From a virus: 64,000 nucleotides of DNA. Below, in pieces: positions 36,541-61,794 of the stretch. The position numbers and the translations under genes are program-made. Every line of letters starts with the position of its first letter. The stretch's first letter is position 1. Below the pieces are notes generated by a model. The model searched no databases. It saw only the letters and a list, made by a program, of their open reading frames with translations, and was not told the DNA's origin. Location of the stretch: IMG/VR virus record IMGVR_UViG_3300045988_144993; one strand, given 5' to 3'.

Positions 36541-36548
36541 AAGTATTT

Positions 36549-36650: not shown

Positions 36651-36652
36651 TT

Positions 36653-36726: not shown

Positions 36727-36745
36727 CACCTCTTTCTAAATATTA

Positions 36746-36822: not shown

Positions 36823-36834
36823 TAATACAAAATA

Positions 36835-36983
36835 TGTGGCTGACCAACATCATCCTTCTATATATCAGGGAACTATATGTCGTGGGTTCGATTCCCACCA
36901 TTCCATCGAAGATGGAATGTAGCACAGTTGGTAGTGCAATAGTATTATTAGATGTTAAAATTACCGCATCGAATAAATTTCAA
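36835..36983 (+). repeat. repeat unit U4 (long class) carrying a permuted tRNA-like domain
   Basis: TGTGGCTG at 36835, TCATCCTTCTA at 36850, AAATTTCAA at 36975. Confidence 0.6.
36872..36943 (+). ncRNA. circularly permuted tRNA-like domain
   Basis: ACTAT, variable region, T-arm GTGGG-TTCGATT-CCCAC, acceptor 3' strand CATTCCA, loop TCGAAGA, acceptor 5' strand TGGAATG, D-arm TA-GCAC-AGTTGGTA-GTGC, then ATAGT. Both the acceptor stem (7 bp) and the anticodon stem (5 bp) pair perfectly. The would-be anticodon loop is not canonical. Confidence 0.5.
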
Positions 36984-37012
36984 ATAATTAGAAATAATAT
37001 TGAGAAAAACAC

Positions 37013-37041
37013 TTGACAAATAGTAAAATGTGTGCTATAAT
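37013..37041 (+). promoter_or_regulatory. sigma-A-type promoter with upstream element, inside the repeat region
   Basis: Upstream element TTAGAAATAATATTGAGAAA at 36988. TTGACA at 37013 and extended -10 TATAAT at 37036. Confidence 0.55.
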
Positions 37042-37064
37042 ATCTAATGTAAGTTAAATAAATA

Positions 37065-37142
37065 TTCGGCTGTTGAGGTTCATCCTTCTACCTATTAGGA
37101 ATAGACTTTTAATCTATATATTATAAGAGCCTCAAATTTCTG
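37065..37142 (+). repeat. repeat unit U5 (short class)
   Basis: TTCGGCTG, TCATCCTTCTA at 37080, AAATTTCTG at 37134. Hairpin ATAGA-CTTTTAA-TCTAT at 37101-37117. Confidence 0.5.
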
Positions 37143-37151
37143 AATATAAGC

Positions 37152-37289
37152 TGGCTGAAAGGTTTCATCCTTCTTCAAATACATAATATCAAGCTGCTAA
37201 TCGTGGGTTCGATTCCCACCTATCTACATTGTTGGTAGTCGCCAAGAGGTAAGGCAGCAGCCCTAAAATCAAAGAGACCGAAATTTCCA
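37152..37289 (+). repeat. repeat unit U6 (long class) carrying a permuted tRNA-like domain
   Basis: TGGCTG at 37152, TCATCCTTCTT at 37165, AAATTTCCA at 37281. Confidence 0.55.
37193..37261 (+). ncRNA. circularly permuted tRNA-like domain (Gln/Glu-type D-arm)
   Basis: GCTGC, variable region, T-arm GTGGG-TTCGATT-CCCAC, CTATCTA, then TTGGTAG, D-arm TCGCCAAGAGGTAAGGCA, then GCAGC. The anticodon stem pairs perfectly. The acceptor stem pairs only 5 of 7, with one wobble. Confidence 0.4.
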
Positions 37290-37481
37290 GCATTAAGAAA
37301 CATTATTGAGCAAAACAAAATACGATAACTACAAAACCTAATCAGAATTTTTCACCTCTTTCTTTCCTTTCTATGTTTTTGTGTATTTCATAAGATAAAT
37401 TAAGAGTATTTTTTTGTCTGATTAAAACCTGTTTAACAGGGGGCAAAGTTAGATAGATAAAGGTCTTTGCCATATACATAT

Positions 37482-37559
37482 GCGCCGATAGTTCAGTTGG
37501 AACAGAATGCTTGACTACGAATCAAGAGGTCGCAGGTTCGAGTCCTGCTCGGCGTGCCA
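37482..37559 (+). tRNA. tRNA-Arg(ACG)
   Basis: Acceptor stem GCGCCGA/TCGGCGT. Anticodon stem CTTGA/TCAAG with loop CTACGAA. T-arm GCAGG-TTCGAGT-CCTGC. CCA is encoded. Confidence 0.7.
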
Positions 37560-37577
37560 AGAGTGAAAATTTAATAT

Positions 37578-37663
37578 GCTGGTATGATGGAATTGGCAGA
37601 CATAGCGGACTTAAAATCCGTTGGCTGCAAGCCGTGTCGGTTCGAGTCCGACTACCAGTACCA
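37578..37663 (+). tRNA. tRNA-Leu(TAA)
   Basis: Acceptor stem GCTGGTA/TACCAGT. Anticodon loop CTTAAAA. Long variable arm. T-arm GTCGG-TTCGAGT-CCGAC. Confidence 0.7.
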
Positions 37664-37713
37664 CTTTTCATTAAGTTTCACCTCTATTGACAGCCGGGAA
37701 AGACCGGCAATAT

Positions 37714-37803
37714 GGCGAGTTGGCAGAGTCCGGCTTATTGCACCTGTCTCGAAAACAGGCGGCGGTGATGAGCCGCCCGTGGGTTCAAATCCTACACTCG
37801 CCG
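37714..37803 (+). tRNA. tRNA-Ser(CGA)
   Basis: Acceptor stem GGCGAGT/ACTCGCC. Anticodon stem CCTGT/ACAGG with loop CTCGAAA. Long variable arm. T-arm GTGGG-TTCAAAT-CCTAC. CCA is not encoded. Confidence 0.65.
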
Positions 37804-38422
37804 TCAACATCCTGTTAGCGCAACAGGTTGGTTGAGAACCGACTCTCACGACCAATACCAAAAGCATAAAAGCCTCTTAACAATGCTCACTATTATGAAA
37901 AAGTTGGTTATTAAAATATTGCTGTCGCCGCGAATATAGGTGGGGTAAACATACTTTCATATGCAAATCGCAAAATCCTCATTAGCGAACTCCGTGGAAG
38001 CTGCTCCTATGGCTGATGGCTTCTGACAGCAACTATATAAATGAGAAGAAAGAAACTCTCTGTTTAGGGTGAAATGATATATCTCTAATCGGTGCTGACA
38101 CCTATCAGACATTTATATGGCGTTACACCCTCTACCGATACGATAAATCGGGGTAACACAATGGTGAGGGAATTATAAATACGAGAGTGCAGGAATAATG
38201 AGTAGTCATTCAAAGGAATTACAGTAAATGATTGTGCATTTATAACGAACTGCAAGAGTGAATGTATGAACAATGAATGACGGTGACTAAATATCAGTTA
38301 GCAATGGCAATATGAGGCGAGGATGTGGTGTGGCTATGCAAACCAACTCACAGTGTTTCGGCATAGAGTAGTTAAACTGTTGCTAACTGGTATTGAAATC
38401 ACTTTAGAAAGGAGAGAACAAA

Positions 38423-38692
38423 ATGTTTCATAATGTAATAATCGGAAGTCCGATTGTAGAACCTAAAACATTGATTGCTCTTGATGATGTAGATTGGGAA
38501 ACCAATGAAAAAGAAAAGACATTATTTACCGATACAAGATTTCTTCCGGCAATTATGAAAGAAGCCGGAATAGTGAAATCAATCGGAGAAGTTAGAAAGA
38601 ATAAGCCCGAACTTGTTTTTACTCTTAATGAACTTGATTGTTTATGGATTAAATGGGGCAAGAAGTTTCTTTATATTGTAGTCGGTAATTGA
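38423..38692 (+). CDS. hypothetical protein
   Basis: ORF with ribosome-binding site AAAGGAGAG. Confidence 0.55.
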   Translation: MFHNVIIGSPIVEPKTLIALDDVDWETNEKEKTLFTDTRFLPAIMKEAGIVKSIGEVRKNKPELVFTLNELDCLWIKWGKKFLYIVVGN

Positions 38693-38920
38693 TTGGAAAT
38701 TTATTATGAATAAAGATAAATTTGCGGAATTGATAAATGAAATATTTATAAGCGGCGTTGCTTATGGTATGGCTTATCAAACAAAAAGTGATGCAGAGAA
38801 ATATCATATTATTGATGAAAAAACAGATAAAATTTTATTTAGTGATTTTTAGTTAATGATTTGGCTATTTCTTTTTATCCAAGTGTGATTATTCCATCTG
38901 CTTTGAAAAATAAATGAATT

Positions 38921-39003
38921 GCTGGTGTGGTGGAATGGCAGACACGGCAGACTCAAAATCTGTTGCTATAAGCGTGCGAGTTCAAATCTCGCCACCAGCA
39001 CCA
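38921..39003 (+). tRNA. tRNA-Leu(CAA)
   Basis: Acceptor stem GCTGGTG/CACCAGC. Anticodon stem GCAGA/TCTGT with loop CTCAAAA. Long variable arm. T-arm GCGAG-TTCAAAT-CTCGC. CCA is encoded. Confidence 0.65.
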
Positions 39004-39005
39004 AA

Positions 39006-39099
39006 GGTTCATTGGTCAAGTGGTTAAGACACTGGCGGAGGTATGTAGTGTAAATCAGGCACACTGCCGGAGACATAGGTTCAAATCCTATATGAGCCA
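39006..39099 (+). ncRNA. tRNA-like element (94 nt) with a 29-nt anticodon-loop region
   Basis: Acceptor stem GGTTCAT/ATGAGCC. D-arm GTC..GAC. T-arm ATAGG-TTCAAAT-CCTAT. The only consistent anticodon stem is CTGGC/GCCGG, which encloses 29 nt. No anticodon can be assigned and no CCA is present. Confidence 0.35.
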
Positions 39100-39155
39100 T
39101 AGATAATCCTATTTCGTTGTTAAGTGTGGCTGACACTTTCAAAAACAGCCAATAT

Positions 39156-39231
39156 TGCAGGATAGAGAAGTGGTTATCTCGTCAGCCTCATAAGCTGAAA
39201 ATCGTGGGTTCAAATCCCACTCCTGCAACCA
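39156..39231 (+). tRNA. tRNA-Met(CAT), elongator or Ile2-like
   Basis: Acceptor stem TGCAGGA/TCCTGCA. Anticodon stem TCAGC/GCTGA with loop CTCATAA. T-arm GTGGG-TTCAAAT-CCCAC. CCA is encoded. A TGTGGCTG motif lies in the 5' leader at about 39128. Confidence 0.7.
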
Positions 39232-39667: not shown

Positions 39668-40519
39668 ATGAAATACAGTGCATTTGATAAAAGAATGAAA
39701 AAGTATGAATTTGTGTCGAGACACTATTTGACAACTCGAACCCCAGTTATTATACGAATTGACGGTAAAGCATTTCATACATTCACAAGAGGTTTTCAAA
39801 AACCTTTTGATGATGTGCTTTCTAAAACTATGCAGGAGACAATGAAGTATCTTTGTGAGAATATTCAGGGTTGCGTTCTTGGATATACACAATCCGATGA
39901 GATTACTCTTGTTCTTGTTGATTACAGAAATATAGATACTTCTGCTTGGTTTGATTATAATATCCAAAAATGTGCGAGCGTTGCAGCCAGTATGGCAACA
40001 ATGGCTTTTAATAAATTTTTCAATAAAAGAGCCAATGATTATATAAATTCGGTTTTAGAACTTCAAGATATAGATATTCCACCTGAATCAGAATATATTG
40101 AGGTACTTAATAGAGCAATAGATAAAGGGGCAATGTTTGATGCCCGTGTATTTAATATTCCAAAAGATGAGGTTTGCAATAATTTGCTTTGGAGACAGAA
40201 TGATGCAACCAGAAATTCTATTCAGATGGTTGGTAGAACATATTTTTCTCATAAGCAGTTAGATAAAAAATCTATAAGCGATATTCAGGATATGCTTATG
40301 CTCGAAAAAGGCGTCAACTGGAATAATTGTCCTACGAAATACAAGAGAGGTAGTTGTTGTATTCGTAAGATTGATGAAACAACAGCGAGAAGTAAATGGA
40401 TTATTGATAATGAAATTCCTATTTTTAAGGAAGATGGTCGAAAGTATGTCAATGATTTAATATACTTGGGAGGGCAATATGAGTTATCGCAGAAGTCAGG
40501 AAAGAAATCACAGACTTAA
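39668..40519 (+). CDS. Thg1-like protein (tRNA-His guanylyltransferase / 3'-5' nucleotidyltransferase family)
   Basis: KKYEFV...VIIRIDGKAFHTFT..QKPFDD...GYTQSDEITLVL...LLWRQNDATRN. Confidence 0.75.
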   Translation: MKYSAFDKRMKKYEFVSRHYLTTRTPVIIRIDGKAFHTFTRGFQKPFDDVLSKTMQETMKYLCENIQGCVLGYTQSDEITLVLVDYRNIDTSAWFDYNIQKCASVAASMATMAFNKFFNKRANDYINSVLELQDIDIPPESEYIEVLNRAIDKGAMFDARVFNIPKDEVCNNLLWRQNDATRNSIQMVGRTYFSHKQLDKKSISDIQDMLMLEKGVNWNNCPTKYKRGSCCIRKIDETTARSKWIIDNEIPIFKEDGRKYVNDLIYLGGQYELSQKSGKKSQT

Positions 40520-40727
40520 AAAACTTTATAATGAAACCAAGAATTCATATGGTGCTGGTGCTTGGTATGACGAGAAAAAAAGAAGATATATAAAATATTC
40601 TTGTGGTGGCAGGAAATATAAAAAGTATCTTAAAAAAATATCAAGCAAGAAAGCACGCAAATATAAAGGCGATATGAGACATTGTGATTATAAGAGAATT
40701 TTTGATTATTGGTGGGAGCTATTTTAA
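40479..40727 (+). CDS. small, highly basic protein
   Basis: ORF overlapping the 3' end of the Thg1-like gene. It may not be expressed. Confidence 0.3.
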   Translation: MSYRRSQERNHRLKKLYNETKNSYGAGAWYDEKKRRYIKYSCGGRKYKKYLKKISSKKARKYKGDMRHCDYKRIFDYWWELF

Positions 40728-41155
40728 TGAGAAGATTATTCATAATGCGAAAAGATTTGAATATGTCTCCCGGCAAACTTGCAGCCCAAGTATCTCATTG
40801 TGCCGAAGCATATTGGACTCGTGGATTAAGGAATTATGCAAAACCTTTGGATGATTATGCCGGATATGAAATTAAAGGAATAATTGATAAAGAAATATTT
40901 GAACAATATCTAAATGGTTCATTTACAAAAACCATTTGTGAAGCAAGGAATAAAAATCATTTACTTAAAGCGGTCAAGATTGCACAAGAACTTGGGTTGA
41001 TAGAGAATGTTCATTATGGTTTAATTTATGATGCTTGTTTTACCGAGCTTACACCAGAAGAAGAAAACGGAACAACACTAACTGGAATTTGGTTTTGTCC
41101 TCTTAAAGATGATATGGCTCATTACATAAGTAAAAAATATCAATTATATCATTGA
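40727..41155 (+). CDS. PTH2-family peptidyl-tRNA hydrolase
   Basis: MRKDLNMSPGKLAAQVSH and DAC.TEL...GTTLTGIWFCP motifs. Confidence 0.75.
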   Translation: MRRLFIMRKDLNMSPGKLAAQVSHCAEAYWTRGLRNYAKPLDDYAGYEIKGIIDKEIFEQYLNGSFTKTICEARNKNHLLKAVKIAQELGLIENVHYGLIYDACFTELTPEEENGTTLTGIWFCPLKDDMAHYISKKYQLYH

Positions 41156-41189
41156 CAATATATTGTAAATGATAATTGGAGATTTATCA

Positions 41190-42029
41190 ATGAATATTTA
41201 TACTACATATTTTGCAAATATTCGCCATTTGCCAGAAAGTATTATACCAGTTTCAATAGCTGGAAAACCGCCCGAAAAATGGGATGAAATTGAGTATAAG
41301 AAATTAGCACCTAAATGGAGTTTCTTTTCCGAGTGGAAAAAAACTAAAAATAACGATTATTATATTGAACATTTTTATGATGAAGTATTAAGTAGTCTTA
41401 CTCCACAAAATGTAATTGATGAACTAAATAAAATTAGTTCTAATAATGATAACAAAGATATTGCCCTTGTGTGTTACGAAATTCCAAGAGATTTTTGCCA
41501 CAGACATATTGTTTCCGGTTGGTTAAATCGTAATGGATATTGTGTAAAAGAATATATTGATATGAATTCTATAAAAGATACAGATGACGGAATTACACAT
41601 ATCAATATTTATAGTAAAGGCAAAACTGATTTAGGAAAAATGCTAAGTAACTTTTATAAGTTTCCTATACATACAGATGACGGTGATTTTCTATCAGTTG
41701 AGGGATATTGGTATTGGTTATCTATTGATGATTCGGTGAGAGAAAGAGAAGAATTACGTTATTTATATGGATTTAATGCTAAAAGCAGAGGTAAAGAAAT
41801 CTTAAAAGAAACAAATGATGGTAAAAGTAGTAGATTTGAGCCTGACTTTGAAAATAAGATTCTAAAAGCTATTTGGTATAAATTAAGAAGAAATGCAAAT
41901 CTATTAACACCTGAATATCGGAGATTACCAATAGTTCATTATTATTGTTATGGTGGAAAGGTTGTTGATGTTACAAGTAAATATCAATGGTTAATAGACG
42001 GAATTACTAAAATGAGAGATTACTTATAA
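41190..42029 (+). CDS. DUF488-like domain protein with a C-terminal extension
   Basis: NIYTTYFAN...LVCYE..RDFCHRHIV. Confidence 0.45.
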   Translation: MNIYTTYFANIRHLPESIIPVSIAGKPPEKWDEIEYKKLAPKWSFFSEWKKTKNNDYYIEHFYDEVLSSLTPQNVIDELNKISSNNDNKDIALVCYEIPRDFCHRHIVSGWLNRNGYCVKEYIDMNSIKDTDDGITHINIYSKGKTDLGKMLSNFYKFPIHTDDGDFLSVEGYWYWLSIDDSVREREELRYLYGFNAKSRGKEILKETNDGKSSRFEPDFENKILKAIWYKLRRNANLLTPEYRRLPIVHYYCYGGKVVDVTSKYQWLIDGITKMRDYL

Positions 42030-42075
42030 ATCATTATTAAAATGACAGTTTTATTATTAAAAAGGAGATTAAATT

Positions 42076-42726
42076 ATGGCAGCATATAAAAAGAGAACAG
42101 AAGGCAATGTTTCAAATGAGAAATTTGCAGAAATTGAATGTGAAATTGAATGTAATATTGCATCAGCAGAAAATGTCAATAATCCAATTTTTACCTTTGG
42201 TAAAGTTCAAGATGGCGCAAAGACTTATATTGATAAGAATTACAGCAAAGGCATTCGTATTATTTATAACGGTATGTGGGGAATGGGTACTGCAACTGGT
42301 GTAATTATTCCTCACATCAAAGATGTTCAGGTTATCAAAGATAGAGTTGTCATTGTAAGTTTTGCTGATGACTCGCAAGAAAAAGCTGTGCTTGATAGTG
42401 CCGATACTTTCTCTTTGGAGCAGGGCATTTCGATTTGCATTACAAAGAAAATGCTTTCAATGGGGACAAACGGAAACGGAAGTTCGGCATATAACAAACT
42501 TATTAACCATTGCTTGAAAGTGTATGAGAACAGCCGAAAGACCGAAGAAAAAGCAAAAGCAGAAGAACAGGCTGTAAAAGAAAAGAAAAAGAAAGCAGCA
42601 GATAAGGCAAGAGCAAAGAGAATTAAGAAAGCCAACAAGAATCGTGAAAGAGAGATTGAAATTCAAAAAGAAGCATATCTCCGTGCAATGAGAGAATTCG
42701 GCGGCAATTCTGCTGTTAATGAATAA
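42076..42726 (+). CDS. hypothetical protein with a Lys-rich C-terminal tail
   Basis: ORF with ribosome-binding site AAAGGAGAT. Confidence 0.55.
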   Translation: MAAYKKRTEGNVSNEKFAEIECEIECNIASAENVNNPIFTFGKVQDGAKTYIDKNYSKGIRIIYNGMWGMGTATGVIIPHIKDVQVIKDRVVIVSFADDSQEKAVLDSADTFSLEQGISICITKKMLSMGTNGNGSSAYNKLINHCLKVYENSRKTEEKAKAEEQAVKEKKKKAADKARAKRIKKANKNREREIEIQKEAYLRAMREFGGNSAVNE

Positions 42727-42783
42727 TTAAGCATAGGGAGTGTGAAATATCACTCCCTTTAATTTATGAGGTAATAGCAAATA

Positions 42784-43554
42784 ATGATTTATATAACAGG
42801 CGATACTCACGCAAATTTCAATAGATTTTCTACAAAGAATTTTCCTGAACAAAAGGAAATGACTAAAGATGATTCTGTGATAATTTGTGGTGATTTTGGT
42901 GGAATTTGGAATTATCTTTATTCCGACAAAACAGAAACATATTGGTTAAAATGGCTTGAAGATAAACCATTTACGATATTATTTGTTGATGGAAACCACG
43001 AAAATTTTGATAGATTGAGTAAAGAATTTAAGGTTGTTAATTATCACGGCGGTAAAGCTCATAGAATACGCAGCAATATCTATCATCTTATGAGAGGTTA
43101 TGTATTTGAATTTGAAGGAAAGAAGTTCTTTACTTTTGGCGGAGCAAGTAGTCACGATATTCAAGACGGTATATTACAAATTGAAGATTATTCAACATTG
43201 AGTGATTTGGTTAAGGATTATAATAAAAGAACCAGAGCAGGGCAAATGTTGAGAATTGACCACATATCTTGGTGGAAAAAGGAACTTCCATCGTACTATG
43301 AAATGCAGAGAGGCAGACGGGAATTAGAAAAGGTAAATTATGAAGTCGATTATGTAATTACTCATTGTGCGCCTCAAGATATTGTTTCATATATTTCTCA
43401 CGGATATTACAAACCTGATATTTTAACAATGTATCTTGGTGAAATAGCTCGTGAACTTAAATTTACAAAGTGGTATTTTGGTCATTATCATAATGAACAA
43501 GCTATTATGGATAAATTTATTCTTCACTATGATAAGATTGAGAGGATTATTTAA
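42784..43554 (+). CDS. calcineurin-like metallophosphoesterase
   Basis: GDTHAN, GDFGG, GNHEN and GHYH motifs. Confidence 0.65.
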   Translation: MIYITGDTHANFNRFSTKNFPEQKEMTKDDSVIICGDFGGIWNYLYSDKTETYWLKWLEDKPFTILFVDGNHENFDRLSKEFKVVNYHGGKAHRIRSNIYHLMRGYVFEFEGKKFFTFGGASSHDIQDGILQIEDYSTLSDLVKDYNKRTRAGQMLRIDHISWWKKELPSYYEMQRGRRELEKVNYEVDYVITHCAPQDIVSYISHGYYKPDILTMYLGEIARELKFTKWYFGHYHNEQAIMDKFILHYDKIERII

Positions 43555-43627
43555 TATGAAAAAGATTGTGTCAATGGGTTTAGTTATTACAATGACTTGT
43601 TTATGCTTTGGAGGGAATATATACTAA

Positions 43628-43994
43628 ATGACCGACATTGATTTTTATGTTCAATTTAGATTAGAGATTGAACGAATGTATGCTCCTTATGTTCTAAATG
43701 AGTGTGAAACTATAAGAATTGAAGATGAAAAAAACAAAAATAGGCATATTACTTATCAAGGATAGATATGTTGTAGGTCTGTATATTTTACCTGAATATA
43801 GACGGAAAGGCTATGGAAGAAAAGCAATTTTAGATTATGTATCAAAATATGGTATGTTAAAGGACTTAACTATATTAAACTCAAACGAAACCGCCAAGTC
43901 TTTTTGGAATAACTTATTTGAGTTAGAAGTAATTAAAGAAAATTCCATAGATACCTATTATTCAATAAAATCATTAAAATATAAAGAGGTATAA
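43628..43994 (+). pseudogene. GNAT acetyltransferase split by a frameshift in an A-rich run
   Basis: Frame A (43628-43765) encodes MTDIDFYVQF...RHITYQG. Frame B (43719-43994) carries the GNAT motif LPEYRRKGYGRKAI. The shift lies in GAAAAAAACAAAAAT. Confidence 0.5.
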
Positions 43995-43995
43995 A

Positions 43996-44160
43996 ATGAA
44001 AGTATTTTATCATTCAGACAATGATGTTGAATATAGAGTTAATGGGATAGAAACCTATAATAAATATAAAGACCGAGTAGGTGAAACTGTAAACGCTACT
44101 ATTGAAAAGAATAGTTATGATGATGGAACAGTTAAATATTCGGTTACTGCGTTGGAGTAA
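43996..44160 (+). CDS. 54-aa ORF whose first 31 nt duplicate the start of the DHH gene
   Basis: The sequence ATGAAAGTATTTTATCATTCAGACAATGATG at 43996 is identical to the start at 44466. Confidence 0.3.
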   Translation: MKVFYHSDNDVEYRVNGIETYNKYKDRVGETVNATIEKNSYDDGTVKYSVTALE

Positions 44161-44165
44161 CTAAT

Positions 44166-44456
44166 ATGAAAATTGCAAGGGCAGCTATTAAGTTTTTTGA
44201 ATTAGATAACCCGAATAAAGAAAGAATTTATTTTGGTTGGAATCACGCAGAAATTTTTCAAAATATGAAAAATGATGGAATTATATATGATAGAACAAAT
44301 TATGAAATGGGTTTCATAACCAATGAAAGACCAATTCATTTTGTTAATAGAACAGAAGCGGCTAAAATTGCTTTTGAATCAGGACAGACTAAAGAATTAC
44401 ATAATGAATTGTTTTCCGAAGATTTTTGGAAAAACGGTCAATTTGATTATAGTTAG
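44166..44456 (+). CDS. hypothetical protein
   Basis: ORF. Confidence 0.5.
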   Translation: MKIARAAIKFFELDNPNKERIYFGWNHAEIFQNMKNDGIIYDRTNYEMGFITNERPIHFVNRTEAAKIAFESGQTKELHNELFSEDFWKNGQFDYS

Positions 44457-44465
44457 GAGTGTTTT

Positions 44466-45347
44466 ATGAAAGTATTTTATCATTCAGACAATGATGGTAA
44501 ATGTGCTGGTTATTGGGTAAAAACCTTAAATAAATTAACTGACAACTTTACCGATGAATATATCAAAATAAATTATGGGATAGAATTCCCATTTGACTCT
44601 ATTGGAAAGAATGAAATTGTATATATTGTAGATTATTCTATTTCTCCGGAAGAAATGGATAAGTTACTTGAAATTACGAGTAATGTCATTTGGATTGACC
44701 ATCATAAATCAGCAATTGAAAAATATAAGAATTATGATAAAGAAGTTAAAGGGTTAAGGTATGACGGTATTGCTGGTTGTATGCTTACTTATTGTTATCT
44801 TTCATTTCTTACTGATGAAACTAAAGAATTTACACCTGAAATGGTTGTGTCAGCTCCGATGTTTACAAAGTTAATTGCGGATTATGATGTTTGGACTTTT
44901 GAGTTTGGAGATAAGACAAGAAGATTTCAAAAAGGCTTTGAATTATATCCACACGAACCAGAGGATAAAATCTGGGATAATTTATGGAGCAATATATTCT
45001 GTGAATCAGATGAAATGAATCGGATTATAGAAGCAGGGAAGATAATTATTGAATATAGAAAATGTATGATGGCAGAGTATTGTGAAAATAAGGGATTTGA
45101 AGCAATTCTTGAAGATTACAAATGTTTTGCTATCAATATGGCTATGGTTAGCAGTGATGATTTTGTCATTGATAATATAAACGATTATGATATTCTAATT
45201 GGATTCTCATATGATGGAGATAATTGGAATTATTCATTGCGTTCCACAAAGGTTGACTGTGCAGTGCTTGCTATGAAATATGGTGGTGGCGGTCATAAGG
45301 GTGCAGCAGGATTTAGTAGCCCTGACTTTGTGTTAAGAAAATTGTAA
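44466..45347 (+). CDS. DHH/DHHA1 phosphoesterase (NrnA-like nanoRNase/pAp phosphatase)
   Basis: HSDNDG, IDHH and C-terminal GGGHKGAAGF motifs. Confidence 0.6.
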   Translation: MKVFYHSDNDGKCAGYWVKTLNKLTDNFTDEYIKINYGIEFPFDSIGKNEIVYIVDYSISPEEMDKLLEITSNVIWIDHHKSAIEKYKNYDKEVKGLRYDGIAGCMLTYCYLSFLTDETKEFTPEMVVSAPMFTKLIADYDVWTFEFGDKTRRFQKGFELYPHEPEDKIWDNLWSNIFCESDEMNRIIEAGKIIIEYRKCMMAEYCENKGFEAILEDYKCFAINMAMVSSDDFVIDNINDYDILIGFSYDGDNWNYSLRSTKVDCAVLAMKYGGGGHKGAAGFSSPDFVLRKL

Positions 45348-46753: not shown

Positions 46754-47797
46754 ATGTTAAAAATGACACAAGAAGAAACACAAAAAGTTCTTGATGAGAG
46801 AAATGGAAATTTTCAAATCATTTCTTATAATGGAATGAGAAATAACAGTGAGGTTATATGTTTACATTGTGGTTCACAATTTAGCACTTCCATAGATAGT
46901 TTATTGAGAAAAACAGGAACTTCGTTTGGATGTAGTTATTGCAATTTTCAAAGAATAAAAGATAAGTTGCAAAACAATTCACTTGAATTTATTTCAAGGA
47001 ATAAAGATAAAATAAATGTTAAATGTAAAAACTGTAATCATATTATAGCAAATAGAACTTCTATTCTTACAAATCCTAAATACTTATGCAAATATTGTTC
47101 ATCGGATGCAAGATTAAGTAAAATAATTAACAATCCAAAACTTTATTCTATTTCAACTATAAACCACGCAATTATTGACTGGAATATCCGATGTTTGATT
47201 GAAACTCATTCTTTAGAATGGTATTACATACTTGGGCTTCTTATATCTGATGGGTCTTTTGATAACATAAATAATAGAATTGTGTTAGCATTAAAAAAGT
47301 CAGACAAAGATTGTATAAATAAAATTGCTAATATTATTGGTTGTAAAGTAACTGAAACCAGTAAAACTATTGGAATTGATTTTTGTTGTGGCACTATCAA
47401 ATCTATAATTAAAAAATATTCAATATCCAATGCTAAAACTTATAATCCTTGTGATATTTCATCCTTAAATGATAAAGAGTTAATTGCTTTTATTATTGGT
47501 TTTATTGATGGAGATGGTAATATTGGTTATCGAAGTGATACAAAATCTCCAAGAATTACAATAAAGCTACATAATAGTTGGTGTCGTAATCTTAAATATA
47601 TTTCTGATGGTTTATATAAATATTTCGGTATTATTAAATCTCCTAATCCGGTTTTAGTTAAGCAAGATAATAAAATATATGCTACTATAACTTTTGGAAA
47701 TAAAACTGTTTTAAGAGGTTTATATGATTTTATTAAAATAAATTCTATTCCTGCAATGAAAAGAAAATGGAATAGGTTGGAGGTGTTGAATATATGA
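46754..47797 (+). CDS. LAGLIDADG homing endonuclease with N-terminal zinc fingers
   Basis: Two LAGLIDADG motifs (LGLLISDGSF and IIGFIDGDGNI). CxxC pairs at the N-terminus. Confidence 0.7.
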   Translation: MLKMTQEETQKVLDERNGNFQIISYNGMRNNSEVICLHCGSQFSTSIDSLLRKTGTSFGCSYCNFQRIKDKLQNNSLEFISRNKDKINVKCKNCNHIIANRTSILTNPKYLCKYCSSDARLSKIINNPKLYSISTINHAIIDWNIRCLIETHSLEWYYILGLLISDGSFDNINNRIVLALKKSDKDCINKIANIIGCKVTETSKTIGIDFCCGTIKSIIKKYSISNAKTYNPCDISSLNDKELIAFIIGFIDGDGNIGYRSDTKSPRITIKLHNSWCRNLKYISDGLYKYFGIIKSPNPVLVKQDNKIYATITFGNKTVLRGLYDFIKINSIPAMKRKWNRLEVLNI

Positions 47798-47802
47798 GTC
47801 AG

Positions 47803-48372
47803 ATGTATTTTATAGCTGACCTGCATTAGCATTTCAATCACGAAAATTGTCTCTCGTTTGACAATAGACCATTTAAGACGATTGAAGAACACGATACTGA
47901 ACTTATAAGACGATGGAACAAAATTGTCGGATTTGATGATGATGTATGGATTCTCGGAGATATTAGTTGGGGTAACGCAACAAAGACTATTGGGGTATTC
48001 AGTCAATTAAATGGAAACAAACATCTTTGCATAGGAAACCACGATAGAAAACTACTTAAAAGCAAGAATATTAGAGACTTGTTCATTGAAATCGTTGATT
48101 ACAAAGAAATCAAAATTAACGGCAATGACATTATTTTATCCCACTACCCTATACCTTGTTTTAACCGACACTATTATGGTGCTTACCATTTTTACGGACA
48201 CGTTCATAATTCATTTGAGTGGAATATGATGCAGAGAGTTAAATATGAAATGGTTGCTCTCTACGACAAGCCCTGCAATATGTTTAATGTTGGTTGTATG
48301 ATTCCTTATATGAATTATACACCGAGAACATTTGAAGAAATAATTCATAGTGAGGATAAAGAAAATGTATGA
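47803..48372 (+). pseudogene. metallophosphoesterase with an in-frame TAG
   Basis: MYFIADLH[TAG]HFNHEN...GDISWG..GNHD.. continues in frame into the tracked ORF 48079-48372 (SHYP...GHVHN). The TAG at about 47836-47838 sits where the conserved DxH.GH motif expects a sense codon. Confidence 0.5.
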
Positions 48373-48642: not shown

Positions 48643-49230
48643 ATGAGCAAACCATATGATGTAGGTGCTATTTGTGGCAGATTTCAAACTTTTCATATCG
48701 GTCACGAATCACTTGTTGATACAGCGTTAAAACTGTGTGATAGGGTGTTAATTTTGGTCGGTTCTTCGCAGGAATGTGGAACAGAAAGAAATCCACTAAA
48801 CATTGACACAAGAATAAGAATGTTGAGAGCTATTTACGGTGATGATGACTCAATTATTATTAAGGGTATTTCTGATTTAACAGATGAAAATGATATTAGA
48901 CCTGAATGGGGTCGATACTTACTTGATAATATTGACCGTTATATTTATAAGACACCTGAACTTATGATATACGGTAATGATGAAAGCCGGTCTCGATGGT
49001 TTGACCCAGATGATATTAAGGATGTTACAGAAATTATTGTAAGCCGTGGAAAAATACCTATTTCGGCTACACAAGTAAGAGCCTTAATGGTTGCCGATAA
49101 TCGCAGAGAATGGCAAAAATGGGTTAATCCAAAATTACACAAGATGTATGACGAAATTCGGAGAGAGTTAATGAGTGTTCCATTTTATGCTTCGGAAGAA
49201 TACATTGAGTCTATAAAAGAGGTGATATAA
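48643..49230 (+). CDS. nicotinamide-mononucleotide adenylyltransferase-like nucleotidyltransferase
   Basis: ICGRFQTFHIGH (the GRFQPFHxGH signature) and ISATQVR motifs. Confidence 0.65.
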   Translation: MSKPYDVGAICGRFQTFHIGHESLVDTALKLCDRVLILVGSSQECGTERNPLNIDTRIRMLRAIYGDDDSIIIKGISDLTDENDIRPEWGRYLLDNIDRYIYKTPELMIYGNDESRSRWFDPDDIKDVTEIIVSRGKIPISATQVRALMVADNRREWQKWVNPKLHKMYDEIRRELMSVPFYASEEYIESIKEVI

Positions 49231-49467
49231 ATGGATAGATTAACTTATAAATCACTTATGGGAGATTATGGTTCTGCAAAAGCATTTGAAGATGAATATT
49301 CGGAAAGATGTGCATTGAGAAATGCCCTCGGAAAGTATGAAGATTTAGGTTATACGCCAGGTGAATTAAAAAACATAATCAAACAGAGTCAGTGTGACAT
49401 TGCACAACATATTGAAAACTGCGAAGATTGCGGTTTCTGTAATAAAGGAGAACAGAATAATGAGTGA
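49231..49467 (+). CDS. hypothetical protein
   Basis: ORF. Confidence 0.45.
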   Translation: MDRLTYKSLMGDYGSAKAFEDEYSERCALRNALGKYEDLGYTPGELKNIIKQSQCDIAQHIENCEDCGFCNKGEQNNE

Positions 49468-50197
49468 ATTTGTAAAACCTAAAACAGAATATGTTGCAGA
49501 CAAGGATTATGTTGAGAAACTTGTTAATGTTCATTTAAAAAAGGACTTACACGGAGATGAGGAAATTTGCCAAGTTTGTCACGGCACAGGGCTTGTTATT
49601 CGTGAAAATCCTTATGGATTAAGAGATGACCCTGACAAAAGCAGAATGTTTCCTTACTCTCATCAGACTTTGGATTTTTGCCCACATTGTTTTAATGGTA
49701 TTATCCACCGTTGTAATCTTTGCGGCGGTATCATTCAACGTGGATATACAAGACATAATTGCGAACAACAAAGGGAGTTAGAAAGCAAGCAATTAGATGA
49801 ACGGAGAGCCAAAGCATTAAATGATGCAGAACTTGTACCACCCGAAATAATTAAAAATATGGAATATTTCTTTTCTGACGAGTATGGAAGAAATGACGGT
49901 TTCTTTATGGATTGGGATGATTTTTTTGAGTATTGGGCAGAAGAACACGAACCTTCAGATATAAGACCTGAATTTGTATGGTCAACCGAGCCTGTTAAAA
50001 TTAACATTGATGCACAAGGAATAGTTGAAAATGCAACAGAGAATTTGTATGAGGATGCATTCTATGATATTCCAAGCAAAAAAATCATTGAATTACAGGA
50101 TTACCTTAATAAATGGTGTAAAGAATGTGGTGTAGGTATAACATATTTTAAGGGTAAATATAAGGTAAGGATTCCGTGGGAGGATTACGATGAGTAA
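49460..50197 (+). CDS. hypothetical Cys-rich protein
   Basis: Start trimmed to the ATG after ribosome-binding site AAAGGAGAA. CQVCHG and CPHC motifs. Confidence 0.5.
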   Translation: MSEFVKPKTEYVADKDYVEKLVNVHLKKDLHGDEEICQVCHGTGLVIRENPYGLRDDPDKSRMFPYSHQTLDFCPHCFNGIIHRCNLCGGIIQRGYTRHNCEQQRELESKQLDERRAKALNDAELVPPEIIKNMEYFFSDEYGRNDGFFMDWDDFFEYWAEEHEPSDIRPEFVWSTEPVKINIDAQGIVENATENLYEDAFYDIPSKKIIELQDYLNKWCKECGVGITYFKGKYKVRIPWEDYDE

Positions 50198-50471
50198 AGT
50201 TATTACCAGAAAAAGATACATAATCGTCCGTAATGGTACATATATAATGTGTGGACTTGCGAGGAAATATTATTTCAAACCTATTGATGATATAGGTGAT
50301 ATACAGATTAAGACTTATTCAAGCGAGAAAAAGGCTATTGCTGGTTTTGAAAGAAGTTGGCATCGTAAAATAGGTGATGAATACCAAGTTGTTGAGGTTG
50401 AGGAAGTTATTAAGGTAAAAGATGATTTATATTCGGGGGAACCGATAGCGGTGAGCAATGGGAACAATTAA
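50190..50471 (+). CDS. hypothetical protein
   Basis: ORF. Confidence 0.45.
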   Translation: MSKVITRKRYIIVRNGTYIMCGLARKYYFKPIDDIGDIQIKTYSSEKKAIAGFERSWHRKIGDEYQVVEVEEVIKVKDDLYSGEPIAVSNGNN

Positions 50472-50495
50472 CACTGAATATTTGAGGATATAATA

Positions 50496-52445
50496 ATGAA
50501 TGAAAATAGAGTAGAGGAAGTTAAATCCCTCGTCAAAAAGTTAAATAAGTACAGAGATGAATACTATAACAATAATAATAGTATCATTTCTGACAGAGAG
50601 TATGATGAACTCTTTGATAAACTAATTGTTTTAGAACGAGAGACAGGATGTATATTCTCAAATTCACCGACACAATCTGTTGGTTATATGAGCTTGAGTC
50701 AGTTACAGAAAGTCAAACATAGCCATCCTTTATTATCTCTTGGTAAGACAACAGATATTGATGAGTTTATTAAGTATTTCGGCAACAAAGATTTTCTTAT
50801 TATGGCAAAACTTGATGGGCTTACTTGCTCCTTGACATATGACAATGGCAAACTCATAAGAGCCGAAAGTCGTGGTGACGGTGAAACCGGAGAAGATATT
50901 ACCCACAATGCAAAAGTATTTTCTAATCTTCCAACAGAAATTCCGTTTAAGGGTAAACTCGAAATTGATGGCGAGTGTATTATTACTTATGATGAATTTG
51001 AACGTATCAAAGCAAGAGAAAATACAAAATATAAAAATCCACGAAATCTTGTAAGTGGTTCAGTACGTCAGTTGAATAGTGAAATTGCTGCAAAACGGAA
51101 TATCAAGTTTATAGCTTGGAGGCTTCACGAAGCAGAAAATGTTGGTATTCAGTATCATTCTGAAGGTTTTGATTTTCTATCAAATCTTGGTTTTGATGTA
51201 GTACCTTATTATACCAATAGTATTAAAACTATTGAATGGATTAAAGATGAATGCGAAACCAAACAGATTCCGATTGATGGAATAGTAGGAATGTTTGATG
51301 ATATTGAGTATGGAAATTCTCTTGGTAGAACAGGACATCACCCAAGACATTCTCTTGCATATAAATTCTATCAAGAGGAAAACGAAACGGTTTTGCTTAA
51401 CATTGAGTGGTCAACGAGCAGAACTGGTCTTGTAAATCCTGTTGCAATTTTTGAGCCTGTCGAGATTGATGGAACTACTGTATCTCGTGCTACTCTTAAC
51501 AATGTAAGTATTATCAAAGAGCTTGAACTTGGTATTGGTGACATTGTAACCGTTGTTAAAGCAAATCAGATTATCCCGAAAATCACACAAAATCTTACAA
51601 GAAGTAATACATACCAAATACCTTCAGTATGCCCGTCTTGTGAAAATCCTGTGACGATAAAGAATGATAATGGTAGAGAAATGCTTTACTGCACAAACAG
51701 ACATTGTAAAGCAATTCTTCACGATAAAATTTCAAACTTTGCTACAAGGGAAGCAATGAATATTGTAGGCATATCAGAAGAAAGGTTACGCTCCCTTATG
51801 GATATGGGTTATATTACAAGTTTTGAGAGCCTTTATCACCTTAAAGATTATCGTAATGAAATTGCAAAAGCAAAAGGTTTTGGTGAATCAAGCATTGATA
51901 AGATTATCAATGCTATTGAAGTTAGTAAAAAATGTCAGTTAATCAATATTATTATTGCTATTGGTATTCCGGGAATTGGTAAATCAGCAGCAAGAACGAT
52001 AGCTGAATATTGTGAAGAAACAGGAGCAGAAAATACATTTCAAGAGTTTATCAATTTTGCAATGTCAGGATTTGATTGGAGCGTATTGCAGGAAATCGGA
52101 CAGACAACAAGTGATAATATCAATTCATATGTTGCAGATAATTATGAAGATATTCAACCTCTTGTTAATATTCTTCACATTAAAAAACCACAAAAATCCG
52201 ATTTAAGCCAAAGATACAAAGGCAAAACATTTTGTATTACAGGAAAATTAGTTGAATTTGACAACCGTAATGCTCTTGTGTATGATATTGAAGCAAAAGG
52301 TGGAACGGTAGTTTCTTCCGTGACTTCTAAAACACAATATTTAATTACAAATGATAAGACTTCTGGCAGCTCTAAAAATAAAGCTGCTGAGAAGTATGGA
52401 ACAAAGATTATTTCTGAACTTGAATATATAATGGGAAATTTCTAA
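50496..52445 (+). CDS. ligA: NAD-dependent DNA ligase
   Basis: KLDGL adenylation motif, an OB fold, zinc-finger cysteines, helix-hairpin-helix region and a C-terminal BRCT domain. Confidence 0.85.
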   Translation: MNENRVEEVKSLVKKLNKYRDEYYNNNNSIISDREYDELFDKLIVLERETGCIFSNSPTQSVGYMSLSQLQKVKHSHPLLSLGKTTDIDEFIKYFGNKDFLIMAKLDGLTCSLTYDNGKLIRAESRGDGETGEDITHNAKVFSNLPTEIPFKGKLEIDGECIITYDEFERIKARENTKYKNPRNLVSGSVRQLNSEIAAKRNIKFIAWRLHEAENVGIQYHSEGFDFLSNLGFDVVPYYTNSIKTIEWIKDECETKQIPIDGIVGMFDDIEYGNSLGRTGHHPRHSLAYKFYQEENETVLLNIEWSTSRTGLVNPVAIFEPVEIDGTTVSRATLNNVSIIKELELGIGDIVTVVKANQIIPKITQNLTRSNTYQIPSVCPSCENPVTIKNDNGREMLYCTNRHCKAILHDKISNFATREAMNIVGISEERLRSLMDMGYITSFESLYHLKDYRNEIAKAKGFGESSIDKIINAIEVSKKCQLINIIIAIGIPGIGKSAARTIAEYCEETGAENTFQEFINFAMSGFDWSVLQEIGQTTSDNINSYVADNYEDIQPLVNILHIKKPQKSDLSQRYKGKTFCITGKLVEFDNRNALVYDIEAKGGTVVSSVTSKTQYLITNDKTSGSSKNKAAEKYGTKIISELEYIMGNF

Positions 52446-55148: not shown

Positions 55149-55304
55149 ATGAATAATCAACTTATCGAAGAAAATCTGTTAGGTGTTTAACTAATAACAG
55201 GAACAAATTATAAACGAATAAGCGATGTTTGTAATAATAAATATGAGCGTAAAGCGCAGGTGGATATACTTGGCGCTTCGTTGAAAATGAAAGGAGTTGA
55301 TTAT

Positions 55305-56361
55305 ATGTCTTTCTATTACAGCAATGAAATTGTTTTTAGAGGACATCCCTGACAAAGTTTGCGACCAAATAAGTGATGCACTTCTTGATGCTTTTTTGAA
55401 GCAGGATAAACATAGCAGATGCGGCATTGAAACTGTCGGCGGCAAAGGAAAAATATTCGTAACAGGTGAAGTAACTTCAAGAGCATTAGTCAATGTAACA
55501 AACATTGTTAAAGAAGCTCTTCGTGATGTTGGATATGACCCAAATAAATATGAAGTTATTGATAACATCGGTAAACAGTCACCTGATATTGCGCAGGGCG
55601 TTGATGCTGGAGGTGCTGGAGACCAAGGAATGATGTTCGGGTATGCGTGCAGAGATACAGTGGATTACATTCCTACGGCAATGGCTATCCTTCAAGATTT
55701 ATCGGCATTCTATGATAGACTTGTCAAAATTGATGACAGATTTCTCCCTGATGGCAAGGCACAGATAACAGGGTTCTATGATGAAAATAACAAATTGGAG
55801 TATATAAAGGATTTTATTATCTCATATCAGAACAAAGAAACAAATCGAGCAGAGACAGATAAAATTCTTACTGACTACTGTGAGACACTTTGTTCAAATT
55901 ATGGAATTGCAATCAGAGAGTTTCACATCAATCTGACGGGTAAATTCTTAATCGGTGGTTTTGATGGAGATGCAGGTCTAACCGGCAGAAAAATTGTAGT
56001 TGACAATTATCAATCTTTTGCAAATGTCGGAGGTGGTGCATTCTCTGGTAAAGACCCAACAAAAGTTGACCGTTCGGCAGCGTATAAGGCAAGACAGCTT
56101 GCAATCGAATGTCTTGATACATTACCCGATGTCAACTGGTGCGAAATTCAGATTTCTTATGCAATAGGTATGGATAAGCCTCTTGGAATTTATGCAAAGA
56201 CAAACAAGGAAGTAATTGATATACCGGACTGTTTCTATGATGAATGCACACCAAAAAGGATTATCGAAGATTTGCATTTGATAGATGGAACATTTAAGTT
56301 TAATGATACTGCAAAGTTTGGTCACTTTGGTCATTCTGAATTTCCGTGGGAGTCAAGATAA
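55305..56361 (+). CDS. metK: S-adenosylmethionine synthetase with a 1-nt frameshift in the GHPDK motif
   Basis: The ATG at 55305 (ribosome-binding site AAAGGAG) gives MSFYYSNEIVFRGHP, then a stop. The +1 frame continues DKVCDQISDALLDA...GAGDQG...GGGAFSGKDPTKVDRSAAY. An extra T or C in GGACATCCC(T)GAC breaks the motif. Confidence 0.65.
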
Positions 56362-60594: not shown

Positions 60595-61794
60595 ATGAGT
60601 AAAGTTAAGGTCAAAGTAGTAATAGGTAGTAATTATGGAGATGAAGGAAAAGGATTGGCAACACATTTTTTCTCTCAATCCGCGAAAAATAAGTGCTTAA
60701 ATGTTTTATTTAATGGAGGATGTCAACGAGGTCATACTGTCGAACTTAAAGATGGCACAAGGCATATTTTCCATCATTTTGGAAGTGGCACATTTGATAA
60801 TGCTCATACATACTTTGACCAAAACTTTATGGTTAATCCTGCAATCTTCATTCAAGAATATAATGAGCTTAAAAAATATGGCATCAAACCTATATGTATG
60901 ATTTCTCCTAAATGTAGAGTAAGCACTATGTATGATATGTTTATCAATCAAATTGTTGAAATACATAGAGAGAATAAAAGACACGGTTCTTGTGGTTATG
61001 GTATTTGGGAAACACAAAAAAGGTATGATGATGGTGTTTTTGCATTAGATTATAACCAACTATCTCATATGAACGATAAAGATGTTGTAGATTATCTACA
61101 TAATATAGCAAATGTTTATTTACCTAAAAAATTATTTGAATACGGAATAACAGAAATTCCACAAGAGTATCAAGAGTTGATAAAGTCTAAAGGGTTAATT
61201 GAACATTTCGTTAGTGATTTAAGAGAAATGCAATATATAACTTTTATGTGTGATTTCGATAGAATCCGAAATAAGTATAATACCATTATATTTGAGGGTG
61301 CGCAAGGTCTTGAACTTGATGAGAATAATCTAAAAGCATTGCCATACATCACAGCAAGTAATACTACTTCTTATACACCTATTCAAAGAGTTAATGATTT
61401 TGATTGCGATGTTGAAATTTGTTATATTACAAGGTCTTATTTTACCAGACACGGAGCAGGAACATTACCAACAGAATGTGATAAGTCGGATATAAATAAA
61501 GATATAACTGACCTTACAAACTGTTATAACGATTACCAGCAAACAATAAGGTATGGAATGTTTGATTATGATGAGTTTATCAATAGAGTGAAAGCTGATA
61601 TACAAAGAGCAAGAGAAAAAATCAGCGGAACAAAAACTTCTGTTATGATTACTCATTTGAATTATACGGATAATGAAATTGCAGGTAATTGTAAAATTCA
61701 AGATTTGTTAAAACATTTCGATAATATATATTTATCTAATACAAAATTTTCAGAAGATATAAAGAGAACCAACAAAGGAAGTACAATATATTGA
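60595..61794 (+). CDS. adenylosuccinate synthetase family protein (PurA/PurZ-like)
   Basis: GDEGKG, GGCQRGHT, FEGAQG, ASNTT and TRHGAGTLPTE motifs. Confidence 0.65.
   Translation: MSKVKVKVVIGSNYGDEGKGLATHFFSQSAKNKCLNVLFNGGCQRGHTVELKDGTRHIFHHFGSGTFDNAHTYFDQNFMVNPAIFIQEYNELKKYGIKPICMISPKCRVSTMYDMFINQIVEIHRENKRHGSCGYGIWETQKRYDDGVFALDYNQLSHMNDKDVVDYLHNIANVYLPKKLFEYGITEIPQEYQELIKSKGLIEHFVSDLREMQYITFMCDFDRIRNKYNTIIFEGAQGLELDENNLKALPYITASNTTSYTPIQRVNDFDCDVEICYITRSYFTRHGAGTLPTECDKSDINKDITDLTNCYNDYQQTIRYGMFDYDEFINRVKADIQRAREKISGTKTSVMITHLNYTDNEIAGNCKIQDLLKHFDNIYLSNTKFSEDIKRTNKGSTIY

Follow-up and report, generated by a model that had tools for sequence, protein, structure and literature searches.

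Genes at the locus

The window analysed here is a 64,000-nucleotide stretch of viral DNA (IMG/VR virus record IMGVR_UViG_3300045988_144993), and its positions 48643–52445 hold a string of genes that opens with a putative nucleotidyltransferase and closes with ligA, predicted to encode a DNA ligase that depends on NAD+. We refer to the 195-aa transferase at 48643–49230, gene and protein alike, and to its homologues in other loci as NT. The string reads as follows (ORF, open reading frame; aa, amino acids):

48643–49230, + strand: NT, stand-alone nicotinamide/nicotinate mononucleotide adenylyltransferase of the NadM/archaeal type, 195 aa (Pfam, profile, AlphaFold/Foldseek)
49231–49467, + strand: 78-aa ORF, function unassigned, its first base right after the NT stop codon
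49460–50197, + strand: 245-aa Cys-rich protein (four CxxC motifs) of a conserved phage family (93 homologues)
50190–50471, + strand: 93-aa ORF, conserved in the window lineage only
50496–52445, + strand: LigA, predicted NAD+-dependent DNA ligase, 649 aa (NCBIfam, Pfam, PHROG, full-length alignment)

The first-pass annotation had reported a transferase with GRFQ.FH.GH and ISxTxxR motifs and, about 1.3 kb downstream, a complete LigA; both genes lie where it placed them, and the 1,265 nt between them are filled by three tightly packed same-strand ORFs. The 245-aa and 93-aa ORFs each share 8 nt with the preceding ORF, and the widest gap within 48643–52445 is a 24-nt spacer with a GAGGA site ahead of LigA. 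A terminator scan found no plus-strand terminator-like site between NT and LigA. The proximity of the two genes is compatible with co-transcription in the window phage; beyond the missing plus-strand terminator, the promoter and terminator counts, which do not exceed the shuffled expectation, are uninformative on operon structure.

The three intervening ORFs are not NAD-related by any test applied. The 78-aa ORF, shortened to 59 aa in sister contigs, has no Pfam or PHROG match and is not present at other NT loci. Searches of Pfam, PHROG and PADLOC with the 245-aa protein were negative, its 93 homologues carry no Pfam domain for that region, and its structural model (pLDDT 90) finds no significant fold match in the PDB; in other phages its homologues do not adjoin NT or LigA. 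The 93-aa ORF gives only a sub-threshold match (E = 0.038; 14.6 bits, cut-off 22) to WGR, a domain that binds nucleic acids and is associated with PARPs; the match is probably due to chance. In some sister contigs an additional 202-aa ORF is inserted among the intervening genes.

Judged by its sequence, LigA is complete and of the NAD+-dependent type. It scores above the two NCBIfam equivalog cut-offs (NF005932, 500 bits against 369; TIGR00575, 499 bits against 444), which bears out the dependence on NAD+ first assigned to it, matches PHROG 3869 at 3.6e-177 and aligns end to end with the Thermus filiformis and Escherichia coli enzymes (1dgs, 2owo). Pfam recognises adenylation, OB, Zn-finger, HhH and BRCT domains, with Nlig-Ia just under its cut-off (25.8 against 27). 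Two motifs stand out:

50589–50612, + strand: SDREYDEL, the domain Ia SDxEYDxL motif (LigA residues 32–39)
50808–50819, + strand: KLDG, with the KxDG adenylation lysine (LigA residues 105–108)

The genes are set in a dense same-strand array of a phage-like genome with low GC content (~33%) and 13 tRNA genes, and a megablast of 46–56 kb of the window against INPHARED found no close relative among deposited phage genomes. Since the region is present at different offsets in two independent contigs of 153,281 and 154,436 bp, the phage genome would measure ~154 kb. Contigs of 153–154, 302, 314, 388, 390, 426, 508 and 612 kb all carry the region in near-identical form; the length of the last, 612,047, is almost exactly four times 153 kb, and the longer contigs may be concatemer assemblies and not larger genomes. 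Walking IMG/VR contigs with exact 27–32-mers gained ~8 kb and then 5.5 kb. With 10 kb upstream (L014) and 13.8 kb downstream (L176, L178) of the window, ~88 of ~154 kb, or ~57%, were read.

NT belongs to the NadM and archaeal NMNATs

The NT gene is intact and is preceded by an AAGGAG ribosome-binding site 7 nt 5′ of its start. Its sole Pfam match is the generic family CTP_transf_like (E = 1.8e-11), and its PHROG matches are the ‘cytidyltransferase’ families 395 and 3041 and the nicotinamide mononucleotide adenylyltransferase (NMNAT) family 3462. Every specific NCBIfam match above E 1e-6 is to an NMNAT or NMNAT/Nudix model, and a phmmer search of the PDB returns, below E 1e-3, only NadR, NadM and archaeal NMNATs. 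Among 1.84 billion representative proteins we found 2,318 relatives, mostly stand-alone proteins of 175–230 aa aligned over NT residues 3–183, and a family profile built from 98 of these was run against the PDB. Fifteen NMNAT structures rank first, with full-length matches (E = 4.6e-25 to 2e-7), followed by phosphopantetheine adenylyltransferase (PPAT) and TagD:

F. tularensis NadM (2qjt): E = 4.6e-25, full length
M. jannaschii NMNAT (1f9a): E = 2.5e-24, full length
Synechocystis NadM (2qjo): E = 3.2e-24, full length
M. thermoautotrophicum NMNAT (1ej2): E ~1e-19, full length
NadR structures: E = 8e-15 to 2e-7
Best PPAT: E = 2e-6, N-terminal third only
TagD (glycerol-3-phosphate cytidylyltransferase): E = 3e-5

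The fold tells the same story. An AlphaFold model of NT on the family alignment reached a mean pLDDT of 96, and in a Foldseek comparison with the PDB the top 18 matches are NadM and archaeal NMNATs (2qjo, TM 0.78), with PPAT next. The adenylyltransferase domain spans residues 1–180 of the 195; the protein has no Nudix domain (no NUDIX match) and no kinase domain.

The conserved residues fall into three segments:

48676–48705, + strand: GRFQTFHIGH, HIGH-type ATP-binding motif, residues 12–21 (R13, H18, H21)
48901–48912, + strand: PEWG segment with W89, which corresponds to the Trp that stacks on nicotinamide in archaeal NMNATs
49060–49080, + strand: ISATQVR, residues 140–146 (T143, R146), aligned with SGTEVR of the M. 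thermoautotrophicum NMNAT (MtNMNAT; T133, R136)

The first of these conforms to the pattern GxFxPxHxGH and aligns with the same motif in 1ej2, 1f9a, 2qjt and 2qjo. Across the 98 family members H21 is invariant, and G12, R13 and H18 as well as D78, W89, G90, T143 and R146 are kept in at least 90%. With the four reference sequences added to the family alignment, NT R13, H18, H21, S41, N50-P51 and R57 align with MtNMNAT R11, H16, H19, S39, D48-P49 and R55, and NT D78, W89, T143 and R146 with D80, W87, T133 and R136. Of these MtNMNAT positions, R11, H19 and R136 carry the mutations in PDB entries 1m8f, 1m8g, 1m8k and 1m8j. From the literature on 1ej2 and 1hyb, we take W87, through stacking, and D80 to line the nicotinamide pocket.

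On the strength of profile, model and residues, together with the fusions and neighbourhoods described below, NT belongs to the NadM/archaeal type of adenylyltransferases acting on nicotinamide or nicotinate mononucleotide (NMN or NaMN), and not to PPAT or TagD. This agrees with the NadM/NMNAT-like, NAD+-linked character that the first-pass annotation proposed on motifs; it had named a phosphopantetheine- or glycerol-3-phosphate-specific enzyme as the outcome that would weaken the NAD+ link, and in both the sequence-profile and the fold comparison NMNATs come first. PPAT, TagD, RibF, citrate-lyase ligase and ATP-sulfurylase were each considered as identities for NT and rejected on their weak, partial matches.

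NadE is the oldest partner of the NT family

To place the family in its genomic setting we collected 107 NT loci: the window, 12 contigs from metagenomes, 80 viral contigs of IMG/VR and 14 genome contigs of GTDB. They form 28 clusters at 90% NT identity, and every locus was queried with LigA and with one sister phage's NAD genes. The distant gene contexts came from the genome contigs, as a profile search of a 5.8-billion-protein set gave near relatives only, all 58–96% and mostly 64–76% identical. The following counts cover the fetched flank of each locus:

NadE: 10/28 clusters
PncA-like nicotinamidase: 8/28 clusters
Nampt-like (NadV-like) phosphoribosyltransferase: 7/28 clusters
Prs-like: 7/28 clusters
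Macro domain: 7/28 clusters
LigA: 5/28 clusters

NadE is found at 37 loci, and in 31 of the 37 it lies directly upstream of NT within 1.5 kb. The two are also fused, in both orders: P0213 is NT–NadE and P0239 is NadE–NT, each matching Pfam NAD_synthase at ~1e-52. A third fusion, P0190, has the classical NadM architecture, with NT joined to a C-terminal NUDIX domain (24.5 bits, cut-off 21.1); the C-terminal domain of P0183 has no sequence match in the PDB and a weak NUDIX match. The most distant homologues, 32–38% identical, keep the order PncA–NadE–NT or NadE–NT, and on the chromosome of the isolate Ruminococcaceae bacterium P7 (L193 9258–10546) nadE shares 4 nt with NT, the pair being flanked by lepA and SIR2 deacetylase genes and by a PASTA kinase gene. 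The clade, common in Clostridia and in their large gut phages, therefore has a housekeeping-type chromosomal context in Clostridia too, and hosts of this kind are the probable source of the phage gene. Taken together, the NT family is a predicted adenylyltransferase of NAD+ biosynthesis, present in cells and phages, with NadE as its oldest partner.

The NadE and PncA partners bear on the substrate. Because both act in the deamidated (Preiss-Handler) branch, NaMN is no less likely than NMN to be the substrate of NT, and of the name ‘NMN adenylyltransferase’ first given to the gene, the mononucleotide adenylyltransferase type stands and the NMN specificity is unsupported, the partners pointing equally or more to NaMN. 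An alternative is the Francisella order, in which NadE makes NMN and NadM then acts on it.

In sister gut phages NT is part of larger islands composed of Prs-like, Nampt-like, Macro, NadE and NT genes, with or without PncA, PARP and AAA_28 (L012 6766–14328, L048 8694–16500, L018 6936–10540, L051 1964–10540 and ~35 more IMG/VR loci). Two orders serve as examples:

L012: PARP – PncA – Prs-like – NT – Nampt-like – NadE – Macro – AAA_28
L048: Thg1 – PncA – Prs-like – NT – Nampt-like – Macro – NadE – LigA

The trio of Prs-like, Nampt-like and Macro genes is similar to the NARP1-AP operon known from publications (Adps–Adpp–Namat), and its Prs-like and Nampt-like proteins may be either Adps and Namat or Prs and Nampt. 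Among isolated phages, the closest relatives of the Nampt-like protein include those of Felixounavirus and of Staphylococcus K-like phages.

In the part read, the window phage retains only the adenylyltransferase

Searching the ~88 kb read by tblastn with the NadV/Nampt-like, NadE, PncA, Prs-like, PARP, Macro and AAA_28 proteins of a sister phage matched NT alone, and Pfam scans of the window genes found no NAPRTase, NUDIX, NAD_synthase, PnuC or AAA_28 domain. The absence of a NadV-like gene from the window, as first reported, was thus confirmed. Neither the window nor its 24 kb of flanks holds a Nampt, an Adps-like protein, PnuC or a NadR kinase domain. In some sister contigs a Nampt-like gene lies ~15–17 kb from NT, and at that distance a remote Nampt partner of the window NT would be expected inside the part read. 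A scan of viral contigs with a NadV alignment was uninformative: window-type contigs are not among the matches listed, which were the best 80 of 505 relatives. Within the part of the genome read, the window phage retains only the adenylyltransferase. Compared with the clostridial nadE–NT operon of P7, it shares the protein family at 35% identity, and its sister-phage orthologues keep the nadE–NT order; the window phage itself has lost, or never had, the adjoining nadE.

A probable biosynthetic role for NT

The reading we consider probable is that NT is a pyridine-mononucleotide adenylyltransferase of the NadM/archaeal type which, standing alone in the window phage, raises the supply of NAD+, its adjacency to LigA being specific to the lineage. 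We infer the reaction – NMN or NaMN plus ATP to NAD+ or nicotinate adenine dinucleotide (NaAD) plus pyrophosphate – with indirect support from the NadE and Nudix fusions and the NAD-gene neighbourhoods; NT would move AMP from ATP onto the mononucleotide. By itself it could act only on a pyridine mononucleotide that comes from another source. Two routes to a benefit for the phage can be envisaged. On the first, NT would re-adenylylate NMN, a by-product of LigA, which releases it with each ligation, and of NAD+ pyrophosphatases. On the second, it would speed the conversion of NaMN to NaAD ahead of the host NadE, which would have to complete the synthesis, with NaMN coming from the host de novo and PncB routes. 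Either would give a quicker return to NAD+ during infection. The clade's gene normally comes right after nadE, and the window phage holds it instead with three unrelated small ORFs and LigA on the same strand, where it may be co-transcribed with ligA.

Several points weigh against this reading. NT scores 50–57 bits on NCBIfam NMNAT models with cut-offs of 127–397 bits, failing for instance NF002243 (54.5 bits against 127) and TIGR01527 (50.6 against 181), and by curated thresholds its sequence does not qualify as a recognised NMNAT equivalog; as far as sequence comparison goes, NT is a divergent stand-alone clade missed by the curated models. The choice between NMN and NaMN is not readable from sequence. 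A NadV, NadE or Nudix partner may lie in the other ~43% of the ~154-kb genome. We know of no enzyme assay for any member of the clade. Finally, ligation uses a small share of the cell's NAD+ pool, so a need for NMN recycling is unproven.

The NT–LigA pairing is specific to the window lineage

A narrower role would tie NT to the ligase itself. Here NT would be a dedicated support loop that turns the NMN from ligation, with ATP, straight back to NAD+, so that the ligase would in effect run on ATP and need no NMN recycling by the host through PncC, NadD and NadE. NMN is by established enzymology a chemical by-product of LigA, the genes share a strand with gaps of at most 24 nt and no terminator-like site between, and the arrangement is fixed in the window lineage, being kept in 10/10 window-type contigs with LigA identity of 96–100%. 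Four further clusters have LigA no more than 10 kb from NT, with gene orders that differ:

L009: LigA at −2.5 kb from NT, 45% identical to window LigA
L184 (same NT cluster as L009): −4.4 kb, 37% identical
L048: +4.6 kb, after the entire NAD island, 38% identical
L192: +6.6 kb, 34% identical
L055: +8.8 kb, 48% identical

However, LigA is absent from the fetched flank in 23/28 NT clusters, and of the 5/28 that have it within 10 kb only the window cluster has it fixed, each other cluster having it near NT in one or two members. Three clusters with LigA within 5 kb, of the 18 available at that stage, are not beyond chance (binomial P ~0.1, a rough estimate that assumes ~150-kb genomes and treats NT clusters as independent, which they are not). 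The intervening genes are not NAD-related and vary between lineages. Moreover, since LigA is only 34–48% identical across lineages whose NT is 38–72% identical, the two genes have not travelled together. The adjacency is a lineage-specific local arrangement and not a conserved two-gene module, contrary to the phage NAD+ ‘module’ with LigA originally suggested, and we regard a dedicated loop as unlikely.

NT and NAD+-depleting immunity

When Thoeris, DSR and SEFIR cut NAD+, the products are nicotinamide and ADP-ribose (10.64898/2026.01.28.702374; 10.1101/2024.02.11.579819), and known phage answers are Adps plus Namat (NARP1), Nampt plus NMNAT/Nudix (NARP2) and PnuC plus a NadR-like protein (NARP3) (PMC13464706). 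NT was first thought to counter such defences, and in a NARP2-like manner it would restore NAD+ after their attack. The idea draws on a good deal of circumstance: rebuilding NAD+ is an established strategy among phages (bioRxiv 10.1101/2024.02.11.579819; PMC13464706), the Thoeris inhibitor Tad4 is encoded in the same phage at 19736–20116, implying that the phage meets Thoeris-type hosts, an ADP-ribosylglycohydrolase gene lies just past the window end, and NT orthologues sit in sister-phage islands resembling NARP1-AP or NARP2. Yet SIR2, TIR and SEFIR effectors yield ADP-ribose and nicotinamide, whereas NT needs NMN or NaMN (10.64898/2026.01.28.702374). A lone 195-aa adenylyltransferase without Nudix or kinase domain cannot use those products unless the phage elsewhere or the host supplies Nampt, and none is encoded in the ~88 of ~154 kb; nor do the window and its flanks provide the Adps-like, PnuC or NadR kinase components. 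Counter-defence of this kind is therefore mechanistically unsupported, and we hold it to be quite improbable.

A lone adenylyltransferase would chemically fit defences that split NAD+ at the pyrophosphate, namely Metis MisA and other calcineurin-like NAD+ diphosphatases. MisA produces NMN and AMP, with NMN rising ~100-fold in infected Metis cells (bioRxiv 10.1101/2025.11.05.686725), and NT, which has no nicotinamide-salvage partner in the ~88 kb read, would be the exact reverse catalyst, rebuilding NAD+ from NMN and ATP. NARP1 is predicted to be useless against MisA (bioRxiv 10.1101/2025.11.05.686725). If true, such a reversal would be a fourth, minimal NAD+ reconstitution route, one that NARP1 is unable to fill and that NARP2 and NARP3 would fill only via their adenylyltransferase step plus a partner gene. 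The fit is, however, one of chemistry alone: no Metis system has been linked to the Clostridia hosts, no such counter-defence has been reported, and the family's conserved partners, NadE and PncA, speak for ordinary biosynthesis. We consider this a long shot.

We give hardly any credence to NT being an enzyme of another kind with the cytidylyltransferase fold (such as PPAT, glycerol-3-phosphate cytidylyltransferase or FAD synthetase) or a functionless remnant in decay. The generic Pfam match, the NMNAT scores far under NCBIfam cut-offs and the ‘cytidyltransferase’ label of the nearest phage PHROGs would favour such a reading. Against it, PPAT and TagD match the family profile ~20 orders of magnitude more weakly, PPAT over the N-terminal third only, the fusions and neighbourhoods are NAD-specific, and NT shows intact motifs, a strong ribosome-binding site, 61–84% identity across many phage lineages (32–38% in the most distant cluster members) and a within-lineage dN/dS below 1 (0.2–0.4, based on few differences).

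Relation to known systems

Among the known systems closest to NT are the archaeal NMNATs (MJ0541, 1f9a; M. thermoautotrophicum, 1ej2), with which it shares a single domain of similar size, the GRFQPFHxGH, SxTxxR and NPF motifs, the pocket Trp and Asp and the fold. It is only ~20% identical to them, and the phage clade adds an ENDIRPE segment before W89, a family-specific WF motif and ~35 C-terminal helical residues. Bifunctional NadM (2qjo, 2qjt) and the phage NARP2 NMNAT/Nudix of the KVP40 NatV type give the best profile and fold matches, over the whole adenylyltransferase domain, but the window NT lacks their Nudix domain, which clade member P0190 has, and no Nampt partner is present in the 88 kb read. 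The best single-sequence PDB match (E = 3.4e-7) is the homologous adenylyltransferase domain of the NARP3 NadR-like protein Bas30_86 (PMC13464706; probably PDB 9x6f); unlike it, NT has no ribosylnicotinamide kinase domain, and the window holds no PnuC or AAA_28 match.

Phage NMNAT/NadM genes, NAD+ salvage islands and the coexistence of such genes with NAD+-dependent ligases in large gut phages are already published (PMC9503650, PMC11662467). More than half of the NAD-jumbo phages of animal guts carry a NAD+-dependent LigA too, and one 735-kb phage has the adenylyltransferase nadD only (Li et al. 2024, PMC11662467). The window phage is likewise a gut phage with an NAD+ synthesis gene and LigA, but measures ~154 kb and not >200 kb, has an incomplete pathway in the part read and encodes a NadM-like and not a NadD protein. 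Every NadM-bearing phage surveyed by Iyer et al. (PMC9503650) also has NadV; the window phage is an exception to this rule if NadV is truly absent.

In the arms race over NAD+-depleting immunity, phage NAD+ genes now hold a central place; to this the window case adds no new principle. It does add a large, uncurated stand-alone NadM-like clade common to Clostridia and their phages and tightly coupled to NadE; sister-phage islands (Prs-like, Nampt-like, Macro, NadE, NT, PncA) that resemble NARP1-AP together with the Preiss-Handler branch; and at least one lineage with the adenylyltransferase alone, whose possible gain is NMN recycling, a flux boost or the reversal of NMN-producing NADases.

Other genes in and around the window

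Tad4 is a 126-aa protein encoded on the plus strand ~29 kb upstream of NT; its Pfam match, to PF25186, ‘Type I Thoeris inhibitor Tad4’, scores 130 bits against a cut-off of 25, and in a sister contig (L013 12969–13302) its gene is split into two ORFs. A 255-aa protein at 29936–30703 (+) carries a YAcAr (YspA/cpYpsA-related) SLOG domain (63 bits), a class whose proposed task in conflict systems is the binding or processing of nucleotides derived from ADP-ribose (PMC9503650). The 13 tRNA genes, followed by Thg1, PTH2, DUF488-N3a, Metallophos and DHHA1 genes, occupy 32964–39231 and 39668–45347, and just past the window end (L176 6303–10501) lie genes for the ADP-ribosylglycohydrolase, an RlaP nucleotidyltransferase and a CCA-adding enzyme. 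From the tRNA genes and Thg1 through to the CCA-adding enzyme, these form a large tRNA-repair and ADP-ribose-handling neighbourhood.

Upstream of NT, a LAGLIDADG homing-endonuclease-like ORF (46754–47797, +) overlaps by ATGA with a calcineurin-like phosphoesterase gene (47794–48372). The latter has an in-frame TAG at 47827–47829, where the L048 orthologue encodes Tyr, and its ORF covers the last 97 codons only; it could be a pseudogene, contain a recoded stop or reflect an endonuclease-associated disruption. The endonuclease site is occupied in sister contigs by a DUF723 ORF or by nothing.

The window further encodes an integrase-family protein (21357–22340), a PemK toxin (23146–23541), an S-adenosylmethionine synthetase (55297–56361) and an adenylosuccinate synthetase (60595–61794); an M78-peptidase/helix-turn-helix (HTH) pair lies just outside it (L004 16501–17459), and a 72%-identical NT homologue is found on a 2.3-Mb contig (P0322). 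These features hint that some members of the window phage group are temperate or integrated.

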